From a virus, in the IMG/VR virus record IMGVR_UViG_3300005915_000001, positions 2,532 to 66,531 of that record: a stretch of DNA of 64,000 nt; one strand, 5' to 3'. The notes under the pieces were generated by a model, which was not told where the DNA came from, made no database searches, and saw nothing but the letters and a program-made list of their open reading frames with translations. The position numbers and the translations under genes are program-made. Positions 2,065 to 12,509 of this stretch are shown in pieces. Position 1 is the stretch's first letter. Every line of letters starts with the position of its first letter.

Positions 2065-2964
2065 TTATAAATCAATCCTACTGACAACGCATTCATTAGC
2101 AGGTTTATCATCGCGCCATCGAACGAAATGTGCATGAATTAACCGACCACCGTTCCCCACCTCTTGGTACTCTACCTCACAGACACGACCAAGATCTTTC
2201 TCTTCATCGATCTCAACTCTGGTAGTATCATCCATTCCAGATACGTTGGCAATTTCAACTAGCTCACGACTGCTTCCACACTCAGGTGGCCCATCACAAA
2301 GCATAGGAATAGGCTTATCTATATATACTGAGACCTTCAACGACCCAACGAGTCCGAAATACTTTCCTTCTCCGTCAACGAAACCAGTGACAATACAATC
2401 AACTTCTTTTTGAGGTTTAACTTTATACCACCTTCGGTAGTTTGCTTGCTTGAGTACCCACCCTTCATATTCAAGCTCAACAGCCTGCTTACACAAACTT
2501 TCGAAAGTGTCAGTTGGTAGAATTGGTAGTGGCTTTGCAAAATTCACACCGACGTCCAGCACAAGCTTTCTAGCCGTACTCACGTCGATATGCTGCAAGT
2601 CTTCACCGTTGTACCACGGCATAGCGAACGCCATGAATTCAAGATTGTCTGTACAATTTGCAATCGCCGTTGTTGCATCACCTGCATTGCCGTTCGGCAC
2701 GTAAAGCTCACCATCTATTGATGAGCACTTTGGTAAATTCACTACAAGACTTCTCCACCATGGATACTTTACAATGTCTGGTCGAACCAATGTGATTTCA
2801 CGATCTGGTCGCATATTTCTTTCAAAACCAACGAGTTGACCATCGTCTTGCTTATACATTGTGAAGCGATGACCATTATATTTCTGCTGCTTAATAGCAA
2901 CTGGTTGTCCCTTCCAGCTCTTCGGCTTCAAACGTTCATGAGTCCACATATTATGTCCTTTCAA
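2065..2964 (-). CDS. ATP-dependent DNA ligase
   Basis: Motif I KYNGHR, IDGEL, EGWVLK, YKVKP, and C-terminal OB domain (VEYQE...FVRWRDDK). Confidence 0.92.
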   Translation of the reverse strand: MKGHNMWTHERLKPKSWKGQPVAIKQQKYNGHRFTMYKQDDGQLVGFERNMRPDREITLVRPDIVKYPWWRSLVVNLPKCSSIDGELYVPNGNAGDATTAIANCTDNLEFMAFAMPWYNGEDLQHIDVSTARKLVLDVGVNFAKPLPILPTDTFESLCKQAVELEYEGWVLKQANYRRWYKVKPQKEVDCIVTGFVDGEGKYFGLVGSLKVSVYIDKPIPMLCDGPPECGSSRELVEIANVSGMDDTTRVEIDEEKDLGRVCEVEYQEVGNGGRLIHAHFVRWRDDKPANECVVSRIDL

Positions 2965-3824
2965 AATTCTTCATTTCCAACTACTCCATACTTTGCACTT
3001 AATTTCAACGAGAATATCTCCCAGTGTTTGAGACGTTCAACGATAAACGTTTCATCATTCGTTGGTTGATTAACTAACATCGCTTCAACGTCACCACCAA
3101 GTTTCACTAATTCATAATTCTTATGAAACTCGCCTGTGTCGATAAACGCTGCGACGTTCGCTTTAAGAAGTACACCCCACTCAGCAGTTTTGAATTCTTC
3201 AAGCATCTCACTAATAGTCTTGTTGTTTGCATGACACCATATGATTAATGCCGCAAGGAACTTCTTTTTGATTCGAGGAACACCGATTACATTGTCACCT
3301 TTGTCACCAGTGAAAGACATGTACTCTGCGAGGTATTTTGGAGGCACACCATACTCTTCAAGAACTTTCGCAGCGTCCCAATGATACAGCTTACTTTGAA
3401 ATGATTTAAGCATTGTGACATTTACTCCAACAGCTTGTAGTAAATCGTGATCATTGGAATAAATGTAATGCTTGCCGGGTTGTAGCGACATTTTGTAAAT
3501 CACATCATCGGCTTCAAAGCCTTTGGCTTCGACAGTGACATATACGCACTTCAAAAACTTAATGAATACTTCAAGACGACTGTAATAGGTGTCTGACGGA
3601 ACCCTACCACGATTTGCTTTGTACATTGGGTATTTGTCTTTACGCCAACTTTTTTTAGAATCTAAGCACAGAACAATTTCTTGATCTGGGAATTTTCGTT
3701 GTAGACTTTCAATGATTCTTAACGTTCCAAATTCAATGCCTGTTTTTACTCCGGTTGATGCCATCAGAAAATCCATTTTAGCATAGCACCGTCGAACTAC
3801 CATACTGGTATCAATTATCATCAT
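2961..3824 (-). CDS. 5'-3' exonuclease/flap endonuclease (Pol I 5' domain, T5 D15-like)
   Basis: IIDTS, YKANR, EADDVI, SNDHDLLQ, GDKGDNVIGVPRI motifs. Confidence 0.92.
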   Translation of the reverse strand: MMIIDTSMVVRRCYAKMDFLMASTGVKTGIEFGTLRIIESLQRKFPDQEIVLCLDSKKSWRKDKYPMYKANRGRVPSDTYYSRLEVFIKFLKCVYVTVEAKGFEADDVIYKMSLQPGKHYIYSNDHDLLQAVGVNVTMLKSFQSKLYHWDAAKVLEEYGVPPKYLAEYMSFTGDKGDNVIGVPRIKKKFLAALIIWCHANNKTISEMLEEFKTAEWGVLLKANVAAFIDTGEFHKNYELVKLGGDVEAMLVNQPTNDETFIVERLKHWEIFSLKLSAKYGVVGNEEF

Positions 3825-4266
3825 CGTCGTTCACCTCTTTGTATTCCCTGAAATCTTCTATACTAGCATCCATGTTTTTATGATCTTCGGACGTCATTTC
3901 AAATTGAGATTGAAACGTTCGCAGGCACGCACCAGCGTTTTTACTTCTACCAAGTAGAATAAATACCGGCTCATCACTCAGTACTATTTCATTTGTAGCA
4001 ATGATCCGCAACCCGTCAATTGTAATATCAAACATCGGATTGTTGATCTGCGGAAATATAATAGATTGTGTAACAATTTCACGAGTATCTACCTTTGGTG
4101 CCTTTGCTATTGGAGGTGTGATGTAACTTTGATCTGTCTTTGGTAACGCACTTCCAATGCTCGTAACAGCTTGCCAATTGTCGCATGGATTAATGATTCC
4201 ACGCGTCTTACAAGTCTTATATCTTCCACAATTCCCGCATGATTTCGGTGTCTTAAATTCATCCAT
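3811..4266 (-). CDS. hypothetical protein with N-terminal Cys cluster
   Basis: CGNC..C..C; conserved leader at 4264-4281. Confidence 0.7.
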   Translation of the reverse strand: MDEFKTPKSCGNCGRYKTCKTRGIINPCDNWQAVTSIGSALPKTDQSYITPPIAKAPKVDTREIVTQSIIFPQINNPMFDITIDGLRIIATNEIVLSDEPVFILLGRSKNAGACLRTFQSQFEMTSEDHKNMDASIEDFREYKEVNDDDDN

Positions 4267-4281
4267 CGTACTATCTCCTAT

Positions 4282-4326
4282 AAAAACGGATGTGCGATTA
4301 CGAGCCTAATCAATAATCGCACATCC
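4282..4326 (-). terminator. 13-bp hairpin followed by U-tract (terminator or processing stem)
   Basis: GGATGTGCGATTA / TAATCGCACATCC perfect inverted repeat; GTTTTT follows on minus strand. Confidence 0.5.
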
Positions 4327-4448
4327 TAATTTGAGCCACACTTTAAATTACCGCTTTGGTTACGGCGTCCCTTTAGTTGCCCATGATATTTCTCCTTCAC
4401 AAAACAAGGTCTGTCTACTATATGGTGACACCGTAGATTTGTTAAACG

Positions 4449-4492
4449 AAAAAAGCCACACACAGACGTGATTGATACGTCGGTGCGTGGCT
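4449..4492 (-). terminator. intrinsic terminator
   Basis: GC-rich imperfect hairpin AGCCAC..GACGT/ACGTC..GTGGCT followed by a T-run on the minus strand, just after the CsrA-like gene. Confidence 0.6.
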
Positions 4493-4512
4493 CGTCATAA
4501 GAGAGTTTCTTA

Positions 4513-4677
4513 TTACATGTTCACATGTTCGATTTTCACATCTTTCGGGGCTTGGATTGAAATTGTCGCTGTTGATTGATTTGAGGAGTCAGCGATTGCT
4601 ATATCCGCGATCACAACACCGTCCTTTTTTAGGATGATTTTGGTTTTATTCGCCGTGATTTGTATTTGCAGTGCCAT
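4513..4677 (-). CDS. CsrA/RsmA-like RNA-binding protein (54 aa, divergent)
   Basis: MALQIQITANKTKIILKKDGVVIADIAIADSSNQSTATISIQAPKDVKIEHVNM; C-terminal I-x-APKDVKI matches the CsrA signature; RBS AAGGAG; below ORF-track length cutoff. Confidence 0.6.
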   Translation of the reverse strand: MALQIQITANKTKIILKKDGVVIADIAIADSSNQSTATISIQAPKDVKIEHVNM

Positions 4678-5008
4678 CAGCTTTCTCCTTTCTAATTTGT
4701 TCTACAAGATCTTTTATTTTCTGAATCTTTGCGTAATTTTCCAATAGAACGATTTGACGTTTGTCATATCGTTGAGTTCGTTCGATTTTACCAATCTCCA
4801 TGACAGCATTGTCATATTGAGATTGTATTTTTTCTATTTTATGATTAGCTTCATCTAAAATTACTTGTTGTTCAGAGATTCTTTCATTACACTGATCAAC
4901 GTCAAGATATGAGAGATTCGTCTTGACTATCACATCATCGAGTTTCATTGACTCTTTCAATGAAATGATTTTCTGTTTTATTTCTGCTGGTTTTAATTTC
5001 ATATTCAT
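4646..5008 (-). CDS. coiled-coil hypothetical protein
   Basis: ORF with RBS GGAGG/GAGG; heptad-rich sequence. Confidence 0.7.
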   Translation of the reverse strand: MNMKLKPAEIKQKIISLKESMKLDDVIVKTNLSYLDVDQCNERISEQQVILDEANHKIEKIQSQYDNAVMEIGKIERTQRYDKRQIVLLENYAKIQKIKDLVEQIRKEKADGTANTNHGE

Positions 5009-5015
5009 CTCCTAT

Positions 5016-5051
5016 AAAAATGTGTCGTGGGCACAAAGTACCCACGACACA
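5016..5051 (-). terminator. intrinsic terminator-like hairpin
   Basis: TGTGTCGTGGG / CCCACGACACA 11-bp stem followed by T5 on minus strand. Confidence 0.55.
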
Positions 5052-5081
5052 ACACGCAACACACAACACGCAACCCTCGGC

Positions 5082-5567
5082 TTAGTCGTCCTTCTCGGAT
5101 ACTTCAAGCATCTTGTTGACGGCTTCCTCACCCATAACTGCAATCAACTGTTGTTTCAGCTCGCTCAATTTGGATGTCATCTTGACAAGCTTCTTGGCCT
5201 TGGCACGATCCTTCGTTGATCCCATCTTCTCAGCTTCAACAGCCAATTTACGGAATGCAATCACTGCAAGTTCTGCACCAACCGCCCGCATTTCAAAGTA
5301 CAGATGATCACCAACATAATCCTTCTTTTTCAAGTTTACATGAATCTTGAAATCAAACCCTTCAGGAACAGCAACCTTAAAAGGATAGACTCCAGGGTTG
5401 AGATCACCGACCTTATCGAAGATTTCTTTTGTTACACGCTTTACCTTGTCAGGTGTTGGTTTTGCAAGTGACTCATCTTCAGCCTTGTCATTAACCTTGT
5501 CAGGTGTGGTCTTGTCATCGACCTTCGGTGCTGATACTGGTGCCTTTGCTGCGTTAGGTTTTGCCAT
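5082..5567 (-). CDS. hypothetical Lys/Asp-rich protein
   Basis: ORF with RBS AAGGAG; repeated TPDKV in N-terminus. Confidence 0.75.
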   Translation of the reverse strand: MAKPNAAKAPVSAPKVDDKTTPDKVNDKAEDESLAKPTPDKVKRVTKEIFDKVGDLNPGVYPFKVAVPEGFDFKIHVNLKKKDYVGDHLYFEMRAVGAELAVIAFRKLAVEAEKMGSTKDRAKAKKLVKMTSKLSELKQQLIAVMGEEAVNKMLEVSEKDD

Positions 5568-5622
5568 TTTAAATCTCCTTGCCCGTTGGGCATTGTAAAA
5601 TCACCCGTTAGGGCATTAATAA

Positions 5623-5676
5623 AAATACATTTAACCCGTGACACGCTTCCTCGCATGCCCTAGGCAAAACATACTT
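5623..5676 (-). ncRNA. conserved intergenic hairpin motif, copy A (unknown class)
   Basis: AAGUAUGU-UUUGCCUAG-GGCAUGC(GAGGAA)GCGUGUC-ACGGGUUAA-AUGUAUUU; covaries with copies B and C. Confidence 0.7.
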
Positions 5677-5845
5677 AGTAACTACTTCCAATCTGACAAC
5701 GACCCCTTTTGCCTTGCTTGTGATGTTGGCCATCGACGTGATGCTTGCCGCGAACTTTGAAACCACAATCACCACAGTACTTGTCACTATGCCGTTGCGG
5801 ATTCATTTTTGGACTGGAAGCAAAGATTTTCTTTTCATTCGGCAT
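5675..5845 (-). CDS. small basic Cys/His protein (start revised to 5845)
   Basis: Conserved leader before MPNEKK; CGDCG...HH...HH. Confidence 0.7.
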   Translation of the reverse strand: MPNEKKIFASSPKMNPQRHSDKYCGDCGFKVRGKHHVDGQHHKQGKRGRCQIGSSY

Positions 5846-5922
5846 TGTACTGTCTCCTATAAAAGTATTAGTTGAATTGCTATTAATATCCACCATTTAT
5901 CTCGCTGCGTCATGTCGCTACC

Positions 5923-6243
5923 TCAACTATTTTTATGGTAAGACAATTTACCATTTTCTCGCATTATACTCCACGCTTGACCATAATCCTCGTTCTTATT
6001 AACTGAGAACATAAAGTCTGCAAGCAGTCCGGCAGAAATATATTCTGATGGTTCGTTTCCGTATCTGATGCAAACACTTGTGCCAATCGAATCTTCGTAC
6101 ACATCAACATCGATCCAACGTTTCAATGGCTCTTCATGCTTATAATGCACAAGAATGTAATTTCCTGATCCGATGAAACAACCATCTCCATGATTACAGT
6201 GATTTTCCCAATGTCTCTTGCTTGACATGAATTCTATTCTCAT
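5923..6243 (-). CDS. hypothetical early protein (start revised to 6243)
   Basis: Conserved leader at 6241-6258. Confidence 0.75.
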   Translation of the reverse strand: MRIEFMSSKRHWENHCNHGDGCFIGSGNYILVHYKHEEPLKRWIDVDVYEDSIGTSVCIRYGNEPSEYISAGLLADFMFSVNKNEDYGQAWSIMRENGKLSYHKNS

Positions 6244-6283
6244 TGTACTATCTCCTATAAAAACTGTCATTTGATTCTTCGAA

Positions 6284-6523
6284 TTATTCCCCAAAGACTC
6301 TCAACTCTTCGAACTGATTAATCGAAACTTCATCGACTTTCAAGCCGTTGTCTTTGATGAACTCGATGACACGTTCCATTGCATCATCACCCATCGAAAT
6401 GGTCACCAACCAAGTTCCGTCAACATCTACAATATGGTAGCCATCATCAGGATCGCTCCACACAGAGACCATTGTGTAGATATTTGGATTAACAGAATTT
6501 ATTGTCGTTACTATCGCTGTCAT
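6284..6523 (-). CDS. hypothetical acidic early protein
   Basis: Conserved leader at 6521-6538. Confidence 0.75.
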   Translation of the reverse strand: MTAIVTTINSVNPNIYTMVSVWSDPDDGYHIVDVDGTWLVTISMGDDAMERVIEFIKDNGLKVDEVSINQFEELRVFGE

Positions 6524-6544
6524 TGTACTATCTCCTATAAAACA

Positions 6545-6600
6545 AAATTCAGTTAACCAGTGACACCCGATCCGTCGAGTGTCCTAGGCAAAGTGAACTT
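6545..6600 (-). ncRNA. conserved intergenic hairpin motif, copy B
   Basis: AAGUUCAC-UUUGCCUAG-GACACUCGA(CGGA)UCGGGUGUC-ACUGGUUAA-CUGAAUUU. Confidence 0.7.
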
Positions 6601-6994
6601 AGTCCATTGCAGCAATCTCAGCTTCCAATGCTTTGATCTTGTCAAGCTTTTTCTGTTTCAGTGCACCCTTGCGATTTGTCTTCGCGGTTTCGCGAGCATC
6701 TTTTGTTGATTCAAGATATAACTCGTTGGCCATAGCTTTGCTGATCTTATCCAGTTGGTAGAAAACCTTGTGAAGTTGATCTTGATATTTTCGACCGAGA
6801 TCATCTAGACCAAGTTCAATTTCGTTCACATTAATCATGGTGTTTCTGATTTTAACGCATCGTGCATTATTATGGACGATTTCCTTAATCGCATCAGAAC
6901 GAACTTTCTTTGCTTTCTTTGCAGCATCGACACGCTTTACCTTTGCGATTTCTTTGGTGTCGACGACCTTGGCTGTTTTCTTTGCAGTTGTCAT
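6599..6994 (-). CDS. basic coiled-coil early protein (start revised to 6994)
   Basis: Leader ATAGGAGATAGTATTATG before MTTAKK. Confidence 0.75.
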   Translation of the reverse strand: MTTAKKTAKVVDTKEIAKVKRVDAAKKAKKVRSDAIKEIVHNNARCVKIRNTMINVNEIELGLDDLGRKYQDQLHKVFYQLDKISKAMANELYLESTKDARETAKTNRKGALKQKKLDKIKALEAEIAAMD

Positions 6995-7020
6995 AATACT
7001 ATCTCCTATTAAAAAGTGAA

Positions 7021-7076
7021 AAATTTGGTTAACCAGTGACACTCAATCCGTTGAGTGTCCTAGGCAAAACAAACTT
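7021..7076 (-). ncRNA. conserved intergenic hairpin motif, copy C
   Basis: AAGUUUGU-UUUGCCUAG-GACACUCAA(CGGA)UUGAGUGUC-ACUGGUUAA-CCAAAUUU. Confidence 0.7.
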
Positions 7077-7305
7077 AGTCAAAACTCAACACTCCATAGT
7101 TGTGGTATGCATTCATGATGTTATCAGCTTTACATCTATCAGTCAGATATTTTACGCTTGTTAAAATATGCATAACATTCTTGTGCAAAGAAGTTGTTCC
7201 CATCAAATCACCAATACTTTGTGTGGTTCGATGAAGGGTTTTTTCATCACGTTGTTGGACTTCAGCTAAAACTTCACGATACAGTTTGTAGGTTGCATTC
7301 TTCAT
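7075..7305 (-). CDS. hypothetical early protein (start revised to 7305)
   Basis: Leader ATAGGAGATTGAAAATG before MKNATY; the longer ORF-track start would run through a ribozyme. Confidence 0.7.
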   Translation of the reverse strand: MKNATYKLYREVLAEVQQRDEKTLHRTTQSIGDLMGTTSLHKNVMHILTSVKYLTDRCKADNIMNAYHNYGVLSFD

Positions 7306-7327
7306 TTTCAATCTCCTATGAAAAAGT

Positions 7328-7391
7328 TTGACTTGTCTCATCAGACCATGAAGAGTCACTTGCATGGTGACACCCTTGCGGGTGTTTCGAC
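7328..7391 (-). ncRNA. type II hammerhead ribozyme
   Basis: GUC-GAAA-CACCC(GCAA)GGGUG-UC^-ACCAUG(..UGACU..)CAUGGU-CUGAUGA-GAC-AAGUCA: full catalytic core, three stems, loop I/3'-tail pseudoknot UGACU:AGUCA. Confidence 0.93.
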
Positions 7392-7493
7392 TTAAGTAAA
7401 TAAGTTGAGGATGTTTTGTATCCATAATGATTTGGAATTGTTTTTGATTCGTTTTGCAGCTCTTCGTTCCATTTCTCTTAAACCTTGTAACAT
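7392..7493 (-). CDS. 33-aa peptide
   Basis: Leader ATAGGAGATTGAAAATG; MLQGLREMERRAAKRIKNNSKSLWIQNILNLFT; stop abuts the hammerhead. Confidence 0.65.
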   Translation of the reverse strand: MLQGLREMERRAAKRIKNNSKSLWIQNILNLFT

Positions 7494-7530
7494 TTTCAAT
7501 CTCCTATGAAAAATGCCAAATTTAATAAAC

Positions 7531-7729
7531 AATAATTGCACCAACGTCCATATCCTTTAAGAATTGCGTAAATTCCGACTCTTATTGGCAAAGACTGTCT
7601 TCCCCACTTGACTGCTCAGTTCCCTGGATCAAGCAAAACGGGCCATCTGTCCCAGGTGAGGGTATTCAGTGTTTCAGAACCTTTGTCTGACTAAAAGTGT
7701 AACTCACTCACCACGCCGATACAATTATT
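7531..7729 (-). ncRNA. ~200-nt structured non-coding RNA of unknown class
   Basis: 17-bp closing stem AAUAAUUGUAUCGGCGU / ACGUUGGUGCAAUUAUU with G-U pairs that work only on the minus strand; several internal hairpins; no ORF-track ORF. Confidence 0.6.
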
Positions 7730-7740
7730 TTAATCTCCAA

Positions 7741-7797
7741 GCTGTCATCCTCAGACCATGAAGAGCCACTAAGACGTGGCTTTCATCGTGTTTCAAC
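7741..7797 (-). ncRNA. hammerhead-like element lacking stem III (variant or degenerate)
   Basis: GUU-GAAAC-ACGAUGAAAGCCAC(GUCUUA)GUGGCUCUUCAUGGU-CUGAGGA-UGAC; shares CUCUUCAUGGUCUGA with the 7328-7391 ribozyme. Confidence 0.55.
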
Positions 7798-8045
7798 TAT
7801 TGATAATCCCCTATATCATTCCAGTCTAAACACAAATCATTCCAAAAAGGCAATTCCTCCGAAAATGTTTGTCCCATATCTCGTAAAAAACCAAACAAGT
7901 TACTGTCTGCCGTGTCGGCTGATTTCAGTGCTTTGTCATATCGATCAGGATACAACTGTTCACAGATTTTATCTTTCTTTACCCAAGCAGAATTAGCTGT
8001 TTTGTTCAATTGATCTGCCTTGGTGATATTTTGTTTCTCAGTCAT
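7797..8045 (-). CDS. first early gene, hypothetical acidic protein
   Basis: Leader ATAGGAGATTGAAAAATG; flanked by hammerhead elements. Confidence 0.75.
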   Translation of the reverse strand: MTEKQNITKADQLNKTANSAWVKKDKICEQLYPDRYDKALKSADTADSNLFGFLRDMGQTFSEELPFWNDLCLDWNDIGDYQ

Positions 8046-8068
8046 TTTTCAATCTCCTATTGAATGTT

Positions 8069-8142
8069 TAAGCAATTCTCATCAGGCCGTGTTGCTTAGG
8101 CACGACGACCAACAAAGTACCATTCCTTTGCTGGTTTCGATT
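8069..8142 (-). ncRNA. type II hammerhead ribozyme
   Basis: AAUC-GAAA-CCAGCAAAG(GAAUGGUA)CUUUGUUGG-UC^-GUCGUG(CCUAAGCAA)CACGGC-CUGAUGA-GAAUUGCUUA; 7-bp pseudoknot UAAGCAA:UUGCUUA. Confidence 0.93.
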
Positions 8143-8272
8143 TTGGAGATAAACTAATCTTGTTATCTAGCAGACCATTAATCATCACTAGTTTCCGGAT
8201 TTTTTATTCTAGGCTCGTTTTCAAAACCTCATATTATTCAGTTTTCAATTGTCTTCTACTTCTACTATCGGT

Positions 8273-8301
8273 ATTTTACACTGATTAGTTTAACCTGTCT
8301 A
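8273..8301 (-). promoter_or_regulatory. sigma70-type early promoter
   Basis: TAGACA-17 nt-TAAAAT with A/T-tract UP-like element upstream (8303-8335). Confidence 0.7.
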
Positions 8302-8524
8302 GTTAAAAAATAGATATTTTTGAAAAAATTTTTCAACAGACTCATATCTCACTAAATTTCAATCCCAGGGAATCCCATCAGATCCAGCCTGTATCTATAG
8401 TATACTATACGTTCTACGCCTCACCACAATCTATACGGCATTGACAGGCTATTAAACTCCCATAGAGGGGATAATCGCATATATAGACCCGACGACACCT
8501 CAGAAACGCCTGTATGGACGCTTC

Positions 8525-8598
8525 TAAGTCCTTATGCACGCTAGACTTATAGTCGCCAGAATGGGTGATCCTGTAAGTATAGTGTGCATAAAGACTTA
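8525..8598. repeat. inverted pair of TAAGT(C/A)-N13-GACTTA palindromic sites
   Basis: 8525-8549 and 8574-8598 are near reverse complements; same motif at 22395-22419. Confidence 0.6.
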
Positions 8599-10527
8599 TA
8601 GCACTTTATCTGGAACTATAATTTTCCCCTTCTTGCCACCTGCAATGGCCCAATTTTCTTCAGACGTTCCACATGCGATCCGCATTGGTACCCTGAATTT
8701 AATTCCAGTGTCTTCAAATTGTGATTTGATTTCAGTAAGAGCTGTCACGTCTTTGCTCAAACCTTTCGGGGCATACATTGCGACTTCATCATGCACACTT
8801 GCAAAGTTCTTAATTCCTAAATCTCTAATGAATTTATTATATCTCGGAGCCATTGCTACCATTCTCTCTTTAATGATGTCAGCTGCACAAGATTGAATAA
8901 TAGAGTTGAACGCCCGAAAGCTTGCTTTCTCAGGTAAGTGACGTTGACGCCCATATGCATTGAAAACAAATCCTCTTGAGATAAGATTATCTCTTGCTTG
9001 TTTCGTTGTTCGTTTTATTCCTGGTAGTGTGTCATGGTATTCCTGGTAAACCTGCTCACCACGTTGATTGCATAATAATTGAAAAATCTTTTCACGTGCA
9101 GCGACATTTGCTTTTCCACTTGCTATGATTGCGTCGGTTTTATCTGCTAAGTGACCTACCAAATCCATATTAAGTGAAAGCATTGACACAACACGAGCTT
9201 TGCCTCCACCAAACGCTATTGCAAAGTTTACGTTCTTTGCCGGATCACGAGGAATTTTGCACATATCAGCAACCCATTGATGAAAGTCTATATCTGGATT
9301 TTTTGCGAATGCGGCAATAGCTTTTGCATCTTTGATGTACGAAATAATTAATCGGAACTCGATTTGACTATAGTCCCACGAAAGAATCTCTTGATCCTCT
9401 GGTGGATGGATTAAGGCCTTTGCTTCCTTAGACAATTGCTGTGAGTTTGGTCGACGACATGACATGCGACCAGTTCGAACTATTTGATTGTAAGATGGGT
9501 GCATGAGCCCATCGATTTGATGTTCTTGATAAGGTTTAATAAAGATACTATATAAAGTATGCATCTTTCTGTACTTCTGGATCTTTGTGACAATGTTCAT
9601 CAACTCAGGTGACTCACGAACTATTGGGTAGGATAAATATGAAAGCATTGCAGCTTTATTAAACGATGGCTCGTTCTTGTCAGTGTATCCCATAACGGGT
9701 AGGCCATACTTATTACACAAAACTTCGAAACAATCTGCATTAGTATGGGGACGAATAGCAAACCCAGTTAGCTTATGTAATTCTTCTTCGAGATTTATTA
9801 ATTTATACAGAAGAACCATTTCAGTTTGATCTAATTCTAATGGATCAACATTAAGACCCTCTACTTCCATATCAAATAAAACAGGTGTCAATAGGATTTC
9901 AGTTTCCCATATTCCTAAAGTCTGTTCATGTCGACGACGCAACATATAATTATACAATTTGCGATTAGTCAAAACATCTTGACAACCATACTCTCCAATG
10001 ATGTCACCAGGCACGTCACCATAGTCTTTGCTCTTACATCCAGTCAAATAATTTTGTAAACGATTATCTAAATACTTAATATCTTCTTCAAGCCAATCTC
10101 GTGACAATGAACCAAGATCATGTGCAAACCTGTCACTATTGATTATCTTTGCAAGAGTGTTAGTATCTACCAATCGACAATCGAACTCAATGTTGTCTTG
10201 CTTTACAAAGTGTGCGTCAAATTTTACATTGTGATTCACCCAATCGTCACAAGAATTAATTGTATCTCTAGCCCAATTAATCACCCCTTCAAGTGGTAAG
10301 TTCCATTTTTCATGATGACAACGGATCGGCATGTACCAAGCACCTTTGATATCGTCAGCAGTGACACCTATACCACAGACACGATGCCCATGATATGGCT
10401 TAAACGACTTAACCTTTGGATCAAAGGACGTACACTCTGTATCAAGAAATAAAGACTTAGCATTTTTTAGGTTTGGTAGCTCGTCCAAAGTTTGAACCAA
10501 CCTACCACCGTTTTCAAAGTTAATCAT
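8596..10527 (-). CDS. polA: family A DNA polymerase with 3'-5' exonuclease
   Basis: FLDTE, NHNVKFD, Y..QD exonuclease motifs; TGRMS, DYSQIEFR (motif A), AKNVNFAIAFG (motif B), VHDE (motif C). Confidence 0.95.
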   Translation of the reverse strand: MINFENGGRLVQTLDELPNLKNAKSLFLDTECTSFDPKVKSFKPYHGHRVCGIGVTADDIKGAWYMPIRCHHEKWNLPLEGVINWARDTINSCDDWVNHNVKFDAHFVKQDNIEFDCRLVDTNTLAKIINSDRFAHDLGSLSRDWLEEDIKYLDNRLQNYLTGCKSKDYGDVPGDIIGEYGCQDVLTNRKLYNYMLRRRHEQTLGIWETEILLTPVLFDMEVEGLNVDPLELDQTEMVLLYKLINLEEELHKLTGFAIRPHTNADCFEVLCNKYGLPVMGYTDKNEPSFNKAAMLSYLSYPIVRESPELMNIVTKIQKYRKMHTLYSIFIKPYQEHQIDGLMHPSYNQIVRTGRMSCRRPNSQQLSKEAKALIHPPEDQEILSWDYSQIEFRLIISYIKDAKAIAAFAKNPDIDFHQWVADMCKIPRDPAKNVNFAIAFGGGKARVVSMLSLNMDLVGHLADKTDAIIASGKANVAAREKIFQLLCNQRGEQVYQEYHDTLPGIKRTTKQARDNLISRGFVFNAYGRQRHLPEKASFRAFNSIIQSCAADIIKERMVAMAPRYNKFIRDLGIKNFASVHDEVAMYAPKGLSKDVTALTEIKSQFEDTGIKFRVPMRIACGTSEENWAIAGGKKGKIIVPDKVL

Positions 10528-10549
10528 AATGTATCCTGTATATCTGGTG

Positions 10550-11269
10550 CTATTTAGTAGGGAAGAATTTATCTAACATATCATCTATCTTTTTATCTTT
10601 CGGATTTCGGTATGTTGGATCGATACGAACAGCGGCGTCATCAAAATAGAATTCATCTAATTCTATTCCAATAAAGTTTCTATTCAAATTCACACATGCT
10701 ACACCAGTTGTGCCGCTACCCATGAAAGAATCTAAGACTGTATCACCTTCATTAGTTACAGCTTTAATAAGCTCTTCAATTAAGTTTACGGGCTTCTGGT
10801 TTGGATGTATCAAGTTTGATCCACACACTCTACAAAACCTCATTACAGTGTGAGGTCTATTTACCCTGAAACAATATCTACCTTTAGTGGCATAGATTAT
10901 ATTCTCATGTTGTGAGGCAAATTCACCTTTTAAATCACCCATACCATGGATTACATTGTCCCATATAATCTGAGACTTAACATTGAATCCAACGTTTGCA
11001 ATCTCTCTACGAAATATATCTTCTACATCCCATCTTTCAAATCAGATAAGTCTCCCCGAATTTACAAGTACCCTAAAAGCTTCTGGTAACCACTCTATAT
11101 ATGGTGACTTGTCATTTTCTATTTTATCTTTCCACTGATTTTTATCCGTCCGCCGGCTAGACTGATAATCAATTCCATACGGAGGATCTGCCAATACCAT
11201 ATCAACTGATCCATCAGGAATTGATTTCATTTCTTCAAGACAGTCACCATGTATTAACTGAATGCTCAT
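10550..11269 (-). pseudogene. N4C/N6A DNA methyltransferase (beta class) with in-frame TGA at 11042-11044
   Basis: The two ORF-track pieces are in the same frame; reads ...GRLI*FERWDVEDIF...SQIIWDNVIHGMGDL...; DPPY and FMGSGTTG motifs intact. Confidence 0.85.
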
Positions 11270-11622
11270 AGAATCAAACCTCCATCTAAATACTCCACAT
11301 GTATTCCAAGTTCTTTGGCGTATTCAATTTCAGCAGTCACACCTACAGAATCTTTCCAACCATCGAGCATAAGAACATACATACCACTACACATACGCAA
11401 CATCTCAAAGTCATATTGCTTCCAATATTGCCACGTATATATCTTATCGTTCATGTCGTTTTTATTCGATATACTTTCAACAATGGGATGCGAGTGACTA
11501 ATAGGCGAAAAGATATTTTGACCCAAGCACATTAAGCGTGCAGCCATTGCATTCGCTGCATTGAATCTATCTAATCTTATTTGCGGATCGTCGTGTGTAT
11601 ATGGTACGGCTAAATAAATCAT
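11266..11622 (-). CDS. DUF1937 / nucleoside 2-deoxyribosyltransferase-like protein
   Basis: IYLAVPY, FSPISHSH, W..S.GV..EIEYA motifs. Confidence 0.75.
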   Translation of the reverse strand: MIYLAVPYTHDDPQIRLDRFNAANAMAARLMCLGQNIFSPISHSHPIVESISNKNDMNDKIYTWQYWKQYDFEMLRMCSGMYVLMLDGWKDSVGVTAEIEYAKELGIHVEYLDGGLIL

Positions 11623-12509
11623 ATCAATTCGCCTTCGCTATCTAATTCAAAATTACACCACAATGATTCTAATCTTTTATCATGAAAACCACTTGATCCA
11701 CTTGTTGTATCTTTATCGTGTCGAGTCCATTTTTTCAAAGCATCATCGTATAATGTACTTCTATATCCAGAAATCATGACAAACGCTTCACAGTCATTTG
11801 CCACATCCAATAATTCTTTGTGATCATCAACTGTCATTTCATATTTATAAGCCTTTGTTGAGACTCTAGTCTCATGTAGATATGGTGGATCTAAATAAAA
11901 TAATGTCTTCCAGTCATCTTCCTTCTTGATTACTTTAATTGCGCTTTCGTTGAAAATTACTACACGTTTTAATCTATCATGTACTTCAGGAAGATTCTCA
12001 ACGACTTTCAACCATGATGATGATGACACTTCCATTCCAGATGATAATGATTTTCTAGTCATTGGTACAAATGATTTACACGCACCAGCGCGTGATTGCC
12101 GACATCGAACAAAGAACGCAACAGCAGCATCGACATCCAGATCCTGCGATCCATTCGGCATCATTAAAGCTTCAGACTCTTCCCAAATTTGTTTACAAAA
12201 TGGAGTCGCTTCAATGATTCGTTGGAATTTAGAAAACGCATCGACGTTTTGAAGCACTTTCCAAAAGTTAGTTAAACCTCCATGAACATCATTAACAATT
12301 TCACTTTTGCCAGTCTCACTTCCATCCATTCCCCATCGATGACGTTTGTCCATAGGATCTTTACGCATTAGAACAGCAAGACCACCTGCGTATGGTTCAA
12401 TGTACGTTAAGTGTCTTGGCATTAATCCAATGATCCAATCAGCAAGATAGAACTTACCTCCGAACCATTTCAGTGGTTGCTTTGTTATTTTGAATTCACT
12501 ATCTGGCAT
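11619..12509 (-). CDS. Dam-like (D12 class) DNA adenine methyltransferase
   Basis: KWFGGK, YIEPYAGG, VND, YLDPPY motifs. Confidence 0.92.
   Translation of the reverse strand: MPDSEFKITKQPLKWFGGKFYLADWIIGLMPRHLTYIEPYAGGLAVLMRKDPMDKRHRWGMDGSETGKSEIVNDVHGGLTNFWKVLQNVDAFSKFQRIIEATPFCKQIWEESEALMMPNGSQDLDVDAAVAFFVRCRQSRAGACKSFVPMTRKSLSSGMEVSSSSWLKVVENLPEVHDRLKRVVIFNESAIKVIKKEDDWKTLFYLDPPYLHETRVSTKAYKYEMTVDDHKELLDVANDCEAFVMISGYRSTLYDDALKKWTRHDKDTTSGSSGFHDKRLESLWCNFELDSEGELI

Follow-up and report, generated by a model that had tools for sequence, protein, structure and literature searches.

HH1 and HH2 are two type II hammerhead ribozymes on the minus strand of an uncultured phage. The sequence analysed here (termed the window) is a stretch of 64,000 nucleotides (nt) out of the 66,531 bases of the IMG/VR record IMGVR_UViG_3300005915_000001, which has direct terminal repeats and is rated complete. 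HH1 is found at positions 8143–8062, in the 5′ leader of a cluster of small open reading frames (ORFs), with a predicted cut at 8107/8106. HH2 is intercistronic, at positions 7393–7322, with a predicted cut at 7369/7368. On the evidence of sequence, both are confirmed as genuine and complete type II hammerheads. An earlier note on this DNA had described two complete minus-strand hammerheads of this type at these places, and a reading of the minus strand together with a descriptor scan bears this out. The best explanation, to which a probability of roughly 0.6 is given, is that both hammerheads would cut the RNA co-transcriptionally and would give the cistrons defined ends and a standard 5′ untranslated region (UTR).

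Structure of HH1 and HH2

The core of HH1 consists of GAAA at positions 8138–8135 and CUGAUGA at positions 8085–8079, with C17 at position 8107 (U8108-C8107). Stem III has 10 base pairs (bp), formed by 8135–8126 with 8117–8108, and stem I has 6 bp (8106–8101 with 8091–8086). Stem II consists of two contiguous pairs, U8140-C8139 with G8078-A8077. A pseudoknot of 7 bp joins loop I (8098–8092) to the 3′ tail (8075–8069).

HH2 has the same organization. GAAA is at positions 7388–7385, CUGAUGA at 7344–7338, and C17 is position 7369 (U7370-C7369). Stem III has 6 bp and a GCAA loop, stem I has 6 bp (7368–7363 with 7350–7345), stem II has 3 bp (G7391–C7389 with G7337–C7335), and the pseudoknot has 5 bp (loop I 7358–7354 with tail 7333–7329).

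Both sequences display the conserved hammerhead core, i.e. CUGANGA, GAAA and a U-H cleavage dinucleotide. Of the pairs adjoining the core, 10.1-11.1 is G-C and 15.1-16.1 is A-U in both; pair 1.1-2.1 is G-C in HH1 and A-U in HH2. The elements follow the order of the type II topology (GAAA, stem III hairpin, cleavage site, stem I hairpin, CUGAUGA), with both ends issuing from stem II and a loop capping each of stems I and III. The tertiary contact between stems I and II is present in both as the pseudoknot between loop I and the 3′ tail.

The stem sequences of HH1 and HH2 are unrelated to each other, as had been noted before. The predicted cuts are 61 nt (HH1) and 63 nt (HH2) upstream of the start codons at positions 8045 and 7305, in agreement with the earlier estimate of ~60 nt for the same two cuts.

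A descriptor scan of both strands of the whole 66,531-nt genome shows HH1 and HH2 only. A strict descriptor, which demands 6 bp or more in the stems and a G10.1-C11.1 pair, has no match in any of 200 dinucleotide shuffles. A loose descriptor that accepts stems from 4 bp upwards lacks significance, as 37 of 200 shuffles yield at least two matches. The 5-bp pseudoknot of HH2 is not special when taken alone: it is equalled in 982 of 2000 loop shuffles, with G-U pairs and a 28-nt tail allowed.

Related hammerheads and covariation

Rfam, used at the gathering score, gives no match on the window, nor on 10 related loci. In E-value mode HH2 is found as Hammerhead_II (RF02276) with 35.6 bits against a cut-off of 37 (E-value = 4.1e-5), and the alignment spans positions 1–66 of the 66 model positions; HH1 has no Hammerhead_II match in the Rfam search at E-values up to 10. 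The earlier note had pointed to this model as a check, and it stands for HH2, albeit below the cut-off, and fails for HH1. It should be noted that the 37-bit gathering threshold is a curated detection cut-off and not a structural feature of the Hammerhead_II family. The threshold misses real phage copies: HH2 is just under it, 1.4 bits short, and HH1 is unseen. No other ribozyme class was found by the E-value mode in the window at 7000–8600 or in the related locus L001 at 7900–12000. Rfam matches to snoR116, mir-290, MIR5294, Atu_C9 and RAGATH-8 are weak chance matches, far below their cut-offs.

Relatives were fetched through the DNA polymerase (PolA) sequence of the phage, giving 10 viral loci and 29 metagenome loci (individual loci are denoted by L and a number). 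A covariance model made from HH2 alone (R1) detects nine sites at an E-value of 0.01 or less. These are HH2, HH1 (24.1 bits, E-value = 0.0084), four sites in L001, one in L006 and two in L019. A family covariance model (R2), which has HH1 and HH2 both in its training set, was run unfiltered on the window and gives, below an E-value of 0.1, just these two training members, HH2 with 69.0 bits and HH1 with 60.9 bits. On 37 loci R2 yields 11 matches in 6 loci, and those outside the training set include L006 6329–6405 (50.0 bits), L010 1187–1270 (36.6 bits) and L022 3382–3447 (33.8 bits, cut by the contig end). In the relatives, one to four such hammerheads are present in the equivalent small-gene cluster downstream of PolA.

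IMG/VR was scanned for a pattern in which the hammerhead core precedes a ribosome-binding sequence of the window type, and 71 loci resulted. R2 was run on 70 of these (L049 was omitted, being the same contig as L010) and gives 36 matches in 16 loci. Three loci display dense hammerhead arrays with about one hammerhead per small gene: L079 at 2447–5098 (seven), L091 at 173–2480 (six) and L094 at 946–2665 (five); the array span in these is 1.7–2.7 kb.

Alignments of the hammerheads by MAFFT misaligned the stems, and alignments fitted to the model were taken instead. In the nine aligned R1 sites 98.4% of 128 cells pair, compared with 66.1% in shuffles, in an alignment whose fitting to the model favours structure. 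Changes on both sides are seen in 11 of the 15 pairs, the covariation score is reached by none of 500 shuffles, and slid controls pair at 24%–46%. A further 33 distinct sites from other viral contigs, none of them in the model, show pairing in 96.9% of 488 cells, again in model-fitted alignment, with 13 of 15 pairs changing on both sides. The pseudoknot displays a comparable signal. Pairing of a site's own loop and tail has a mean of 5.0 Watson-Crick bp over 11 sites; the mean between different contigs is 3.1 bp (92 pairs), and the observed sum for own loops and tails is reached by none of 5000 permutations.

The position relative to genes was also compared. Among 45 sites, whose positions are biased in that the extra loci were picked by a pattern demanding a ribosome-binding site after the core, 38 lie downstream of an open frame (30 codons or longer) whose end is no more than 25 nt from GAAA, and in 30 the distance from the frame end to GAAA is 10 nt or less. 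A Shine-Dalgarno sequence and a start codon are found within 70 nt in 42 of the 45, the start codon being mostly 30–35 nt after the core; the core was mis-called by the regular expression in a few of these rows. These comparisons establish directly what the motifs are, how they covary and where they lie relative to genes.

L010, L078 and L046 retain the promoter described below, the leader and HH1 together as one conserved block. The L046 orthologue of HH1 has a consensus core, and compensatory changes preserve its three helices and its pseudoknot. In L010 and L078, stems I and III are kept through compensatory changes. At position 16.1 the orthologue in these two loci (L010 1187–1270 and L078 802–885) has U replaced by C, and its pseudoknot tail contains a 7-nt insertion that leaves the pseudoknot with 3 bp. 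L010 and L078 are separate contigs, so that the shared differences are not sequencing errors. A metagenome variant of HH2 has stem III changed on both strands, with compensation. The earlier note had taken both hammerheads to be maintained by selection, and these compensatory changes in orthologues, together with those in the paralogues, support that claim.

A third copy, in the form of a decayed relic, is present on the minus strand at positions 7795–7740, directly after the stop codon of an ORF of 82 amino acids (aa). The relic belongs to a repeat family termed D6 and has 91% identity to the 3′ half of HH2. It has the GAAAC start, loop I and the stem I 3′ strand as in HH2, and its core reads CUGAGGAUGA. 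A third active hammerhead at this position is ruled out, since the core is broken, the stem I 5′ strand is missing and R2 gives 9.3 bits (E-value = 7.1).

It might be argued that HH1 and HH2 are themselves chance matches or inactive relics without present function. Both are below the Rfam threshold, a relic of the same family lies between them, the orthologue in L010 and L078 has a change adjacent to the core, and the loose descriptor is matched in 37 of 200 shuffles. Both cores are intact, however, the strict descriptor is matched in 0 of 200 shuffles, and the helices and pseudoknot are kept by compensatory changes in orthologues and paralogues. This explanation is highly improbable.

The sequence comparisons also show how variation is distributed along the hammerheads. 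Between the window and L010, identity amounts to 91% for the leader, 84% for the 5′ half of HH1, 7/7 for the core, 50% for stem I and its loop (which are still paired) and 37.5% for the tail; identity falls at the cleavage site, and the downstream genes differ. L046 shares the leader and the 5′ half and differs in stem I, loop, tail and first gene, and a metagenome contig shows the L046-type stem I after position 8107. Other metagenome contigs join the 5′ half of HH1, via 59–63 other letters, to the ribosome-binding site at 7513 or at 7325. HH2 and the hammerhead at L001 11682–11750 share the 5′ half (3 differences in 27 positions, two in the stem and one in the loop) and have unrelated 3′ halves.

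These breaks are what would be expected if the hammerheads were active but their value were genomic, i.e. if they were recombination-tolerant junction elements that travel with gene cassettes, with cleavage neutral or incidental for expression. This is an unlikely explanation as it stands. Rapid evolution within structural constraints could account for stem I and its loop, and the conserved ribosome-binding sequence nearby could itself be the recombination site. The relic at 7795–7740 represents decay of unneeded copies, which is expected under any model, and the genomes are too few for breakpoint statistics.

Proposed processing of the transcript

HH1 and HH2 are part of what we infer to be one minus-strand transcription unit, extending ~3.25 kb from positions 8301–8273 to 5051–5021 and containing 8 small ORFs. 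A sigma70-like promoter, TAGACA-17-TAAAAT, is found at 8301–8273 on the minus strand and has 10 of 12 consensus positions. It ends 130 nt upstream of HH1, at the distance previously described, and its hexamers are conserved in all four aligned sequences (L010, L078 and L046 among them). The promoter scan overall is not enriched (23 sites, with 20.1 expected in shuffles); thus the promoter call rests on conservation and position. L010 holds two copies of the promoter, at 640–790 and at 990–1090. At the other end of the unit, a terminator-like hairpin on the minus strand at 5051–5021, with a 14-bp stem followed by UUUUU, is the likely end of transcription. The “early” timing that has been attached to this transcript is conjectural and comes only from the cluster of small ORFs without known family.

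In the proposed process each ribozyme would fold once the 3′ strand of stem II is transcribed and would then cut after C17. The HH1 cut would remove a leader of ~160 nt carrying the 5′ triphosphate, and the HH2 cut would part a 33-aa cistron from a 76-aa cistron. With the type II topology each cut would leave two defined ends. The upstream RNA would end in the stem III hairpin with a 2′,3′-cyclic phosphate, and the downstream mRNA would begin with a 5′-hydroxyl (5′-OH) and the stem I hairpin, which the pseudoknot would hold against the tail, with a Shine-Dalgarno sequence ~20 nt after the core. Having such defined ends, each cistron would obtain a context-independent 5′ UTR and ends of its own. 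We infer transcription from the promoter, cleavage in vivo and an effect on stability or translation. Since the hammerheads lie in an operon-like unit, the cutting of the transcript into units, as had been claimed for this locus, is the natural reading, and it is the process proposed by Perreault et al. 2011 for long phage transcripts, which would be processed into gene-length mRNAs (PMC3088659). The observation made in the earlier note is thus confirmed and its interpretation is partly supported.

The two cuts would excise a segment of 738 nt (8106–7369). It had been suggested that an internal non-coding RNA is released in this way, which does not hold, as the segment carries the 82-aa and 33-aa ORFs. 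The spacer of ~300 nt within it (7796–7494) has no active ribozyme at its edges and so would not be released alone. RtcB-type ligases join 5′-OH and 2′,3′-cyclic phosphate ends, and a host ligase of this type might circularise the 738-nt segment into a circular mRNA or other circular RNA. The segment would bear the two ends in question, which are the ends left by hammerheads according to PMC8782182, and circular or spliced products were considered by Perreault et al. By their account such products were undetected (PMC3088659), and circularisation is scarcely credible as the role of the two cuts.

The consequence of a 5′-OH end for the mRNA may be the opposite of protection. Cleavage could down-regulate or time expression, either through the 5′-OH product as an exonuclease target or through ribosome-modulated cleavage at the stop codon. 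In B. subtilis the glmS ribozyme yields a 5′-OH product that RNase J1 degrades (PMC3328962), and this contrary precedent leaves the protection of mRNA by 5′-OH, proposed in the earlier note, as speculation. In eukaryotic RNA viruses, self-cleavage in the 5′ UTR can promote translation (PMC13725137), so that the precedents on the effect of a 5′-OH end go both ways. A stop codon is found 1–10 nt from GAAA in 30 of the 45 sites. The UAA stop codon of the 33-aa ORF (7394–7392) abuts stem II of HH2, and a terminating ribosome would therefore cover stem II and part of stem III; regulated cleavage was also raised by Perreault et al. for phage hammerheads (PMC3088659). On the other side, the 6-bp hairpin of the 3′ product, locked by the pseudoknot, should hinder a 5′ exonuclease, and the tight spacing may merely reflect genome economy. 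Down-regulation or timing of expression is an improbable main role for the cuts, and co-transcriptional cutting that provides the cistrons with defined ends is preferred.

Several points weigh against the proposed cutting. Neither HH1 nor HH2 reaches the curated score of Rfam. The canonical folds without the pseudoknot are 4.1–4.5 kcal/mol above the minimum free energy, and stem II of HH1 has just two contiguous pairs, although the Rfam type II model likewise has two. The C at position 16.1 and the 3-bp pseudoknot suggest that the HH1 orthologue of L010 and L078 may be inactive or an unusual variant. One metagenome contig skips positions 8246–8062 (leader and HH1), and the first promoter copy of L010 (640–790) is without leader and hammerhead; it follows that the module is dispensable. 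All 24 listed runs containing window DNA are DNA runs, so that neither transcription nor cleavage is observed. To these are added the biases given above for the model-fitted alignments and for the choice and core calls of the 45 sites.

The features of the locus can be compared with known systems. Perreault et al. 2011 described natural type II hammerheads with pseudoknots, and hammerhead clusters that flank single genes or short gene blocks in prophages; ~2-kb polycistronic transcripts were cleaved in vitro by clustered hammerheads (PMC3088659). The hammerheads of the window and its relatives are like these in having the same core, an open stem II of 2–3 bp and a pseudoknot between loop I and the tail, and in that several copies flank single small genes without assigned function. 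The likeness extends to detail: the site at L001 8650–8728 shows U3-A8 covariation and an extra A after A6 together, and both features are described in the 2011 paper (PMC3088659). They differ in that HH1 is in a conserved promoter-proximal leader, and in that the operon is shared with a 23-bp hairpin element. In D. vulgaris three type II hammerheads cleave in vivo (PMC8782182), and a 2019 review describes the function of hammerheads in bacteria and phages as still unresolved (PMC6765202).

A closer parallel to the position of HH1 is the HHphage motif of haloviruses HF1 and HF2, which precedes the first gene of an early polycistronic transcript by 13 nt, with a mapped 5′ end within 3 nt of the cleavage site (PMC3088659). 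Both have a leader position in a presumed early phage operon. The halovirus motif differs in being a structural variant that requires high Mg2+ and belongs to an archaeal virus (PMC3088659); HH1 has the consensus core. Clustered type II hammerheads that flank phage genes, and the idea of transcript processing, have thus been known since 2011. What this locus adds is two copies below the Rfam threshold, a conserved promoter-leader-hammerhead module, a decayed paralogue, and the coexistence and positional exchange of the hammerhead with a long hairpin element.

In phage T7, RNase III sites (R0.5, R1.1 and others) separate the early genes, and the synthetic part RiboJ was engineered from a satellite-RNA hammerhead. 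Like the hammerheads of the window, the T7 sites are between cistrons of a phage polycistronic transcript and give each cistron its own ends. They need a host enzyme, whereas hammerheads cut themselves, and the unit of the window has both kinds of element; unlike for T7, RNase III cleavage of the window hairpins is suggested by their shape only. T7 RNase III sites are named as engineering parts, and RiboJ and RNase III sites are described as insulating parts in polycistronic designs (PMC6993053). RiboJ (Lou et al. 2012, cited in PMC6993053), like HH1, is downstream of a promoter, trims a variable leader and leaves a hairpin beside the ribosome-binding site. HH1 differs in being natural and of type II, and its insulating effect is putative. 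HH1 and HH2 would be natural counterparts of the ribozyme insulators of synthetic operons.

The question of hammerhead function in bacteria and phages is not answered here, but the locus represents a compact natural test bed for it. Within ~3 kb, one unit combines a leader hammerhead, an intercistronic one and a decayed copy with three long hairpins that take equivalent positions. The same junctions vary among relatives, and the old processing hypothesis becomes directly testable. It can be asked at this locus whether hammerheads serve as insulators or do the work of RNase III sites independently of the host.

Long hairpins and other features of the unit

Three copies of a long hairpin are found on the minus strand of the unit, each between a stop codon and the next ribosome-binding site. 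Hairpin A (7076–7021) is an irregular hairpin of 23 bp with a z-score of −3.86, and none of 200 shuffles folds as well. Hairpins B (6600–6545, z-score −4.29) and C (5676–5623, z-score −4.11) belong to the same family. The basal part is conserved, and the 23 pairs have single-nucleotide interruptions. Pairing is seen in 96.8% of 157 cells, and 7 of the 23 pairs change on both sides. The hairpins have no Rfam match. A covariance model of the hairpin (R3) gives 93.6 bits for hairpin A, which is in its training set, and matches only in the window, L010, L078 and L046. L010 and L078 have four copies each. L046 has three, all outside the training set, with 64.5, 46.0 and 29.6 bits and longer apical parts.

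RNase III sites comprise roughly 20 bp or more of double-stranded RNA, close to two helical turns, and small internal loops are frequent in them. The long hairpins have this shape and look like RNase III-type processing sites, from shape alone. They were rejected as intrinsic terminators, the U run being ~14 nt away from the G+C-rich core stem. A role of the lambda nut or put type is unlikely because three hairpin copies are present at successive gene junctions. The earlier note had the phage processing its transcript without host enzymes. This would hold for the hammerheads, as self-cutting elements, and does not extend to the three junctions with long hairpins, which resemble substrates of a host RNase.

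Two junctions can be compared with L001. The 56-aa ORF of the window (5845–5675) is homologous to a 45-aa ORF of L001 (E-value = 5e-8); the window ORF is followed by hairpin C, and its L001 homologue by a hammerhead (10896–11003). The 131-aa ORF (6994–6599) is weakly similar to a 145-aa ORF of L001 (E-value = 0.001); hairpin A precedes the first, and a hammerhead (10099–10217) precedes its L001 counterpart. From the flanking homologies, hammerhead and long hairpin share a place at two junctions, one of them on weak homology. A literature search surfaced no paper on hammerheads alternating with RNase III-type hairpins in a phage operon, although absence of such a paper is not claimed.

A tentative proposal, and one considerably less probable than the processing of the transcript itself, is that the hammerhead and the 23-bp hairpin may be interchangeable punctuation cassettes of a mosaic operon and that the hammerhead may be built to survive shuffling. 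Stem III would make up the 5′ half of the hammerhead; stem I, the pseudoknot and the ribosome-binding site would make up the 3′ half, and both halves would be self-contained. Because the halves are bridged by a generic stem II of 2–3 bp, recombination at the cleavage site would still give a working ribozyme, and this would insulate the new gene. If true, this would provide a concrete, testable function for phage hammerheads, a question open since 2011.

The source virus is a siphovirus-like, uncultured phage. Matches in PHROG include terminase, portal, head, tape-measure and tail-fibre proteins, a helicase and a primase. Window DNA is found mainly in salt-lake metagenomes. Every gene-like ORF of at least 150 aa in the window is on the minus strand. 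A megablast search with positions 5000–10600 gave no match, i.e. there is no close cultured relative by this search. PolA is a polymerase of 643 aa (10527–8596, minus strand), and in a tblastn search its best match is an uncultured Caudoviricetes record with 39.7% identity.

The cluster of small ORFs is downstream of PolA. Ten small ORFs were searched and gave no PHROG match (E-value up to 0.01) and no Pfam match at the curated cut-off. Five weak Pfam matches among the ten (E-values 0.019–0.099, 12.9–15.8 bits) are far below the cut-offs. The first cistron after HH1 is the 82-aa ORF (8045–7797, minus strand; no PHROG and no Pfam match). The relic is followed by a non-coding spacer of ~250 nt (7739–7494, minus strand), which has stops in all three frames and no homologue among the loci. 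The stretch 7796–7494 was considered as a structured non-coding RNA and rejected (z-score −1.69, 4 of 100 shuffles folding equally well); it was also rejected as a pseudogene, since stops interrupt every frame and none of the loci has a homologue. Next is the 33-aa basic ORF (MLQGLREMERRA..., 7493–7392, minus strand), directly upstream of HH2. The 76-aa ORF downstream of HH2 (7305–7075, minus strand) has no known family in PHROG or Pfam, and five more ORFs follow it in the unit.

The leader of HH1 contains a hairpin at 8191–8167 (minus strand), just 5′ of the ribozyme, which belongs to repeat family D6 and resembles the 3′ half of HH2. Its pair A8189-U8169 is changed to G-C in L046 and in metagenome variants.

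A conserved ribosome-binding sequence, ATAGGAGAT with T or A after it, is common to the small ORFs. It has 14 matches in the window with at most one mismatch, 12 of them between 1726 and 8060. A longer shared translation-start sequence, TTCATAGGAGATTGAAAATG, is present on the minus strand at 8061–8043, 7510–7491 and 7323–7303. It could form a 4-bp hairpin (TTCA with TGAA) with the Shine-Dalgarno sequence in the loop. A second type of start sequence, TATAGGAGATAGTACAATG, is used by genes further downstream.

A perfect palindrome, TTGAAAAATTTTTTCAA, occurs once in the window, at 8336–8317, just upstream of the −35 hexamer of the promoter, and is conserved in all four aligned sequences. Between the PolA stop codon and the promoter there is a non-coding stretch of ~250 nt (8595–8340, minus strand) with an inverted repeat; it is conserved with 87% identity in L010 and 72% in L002.

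Three homologues of the 33-aa ORF are found in L001, at 9045–9146, 9505–9654 and 9994–10101. Two of these were aligned and show identities of 38% and 44%; one copy has four tandem 12-nt repeats. A G+C-rich element of ~55 nt with complementary ends is conserved after two of these ORFs (L001 9147–9205 and 9655–9715); it has no Rfam match at E-values up to 1. The third ORF copy has a hammerhead where the other two have the ~55-nt element, which could be another processing element.

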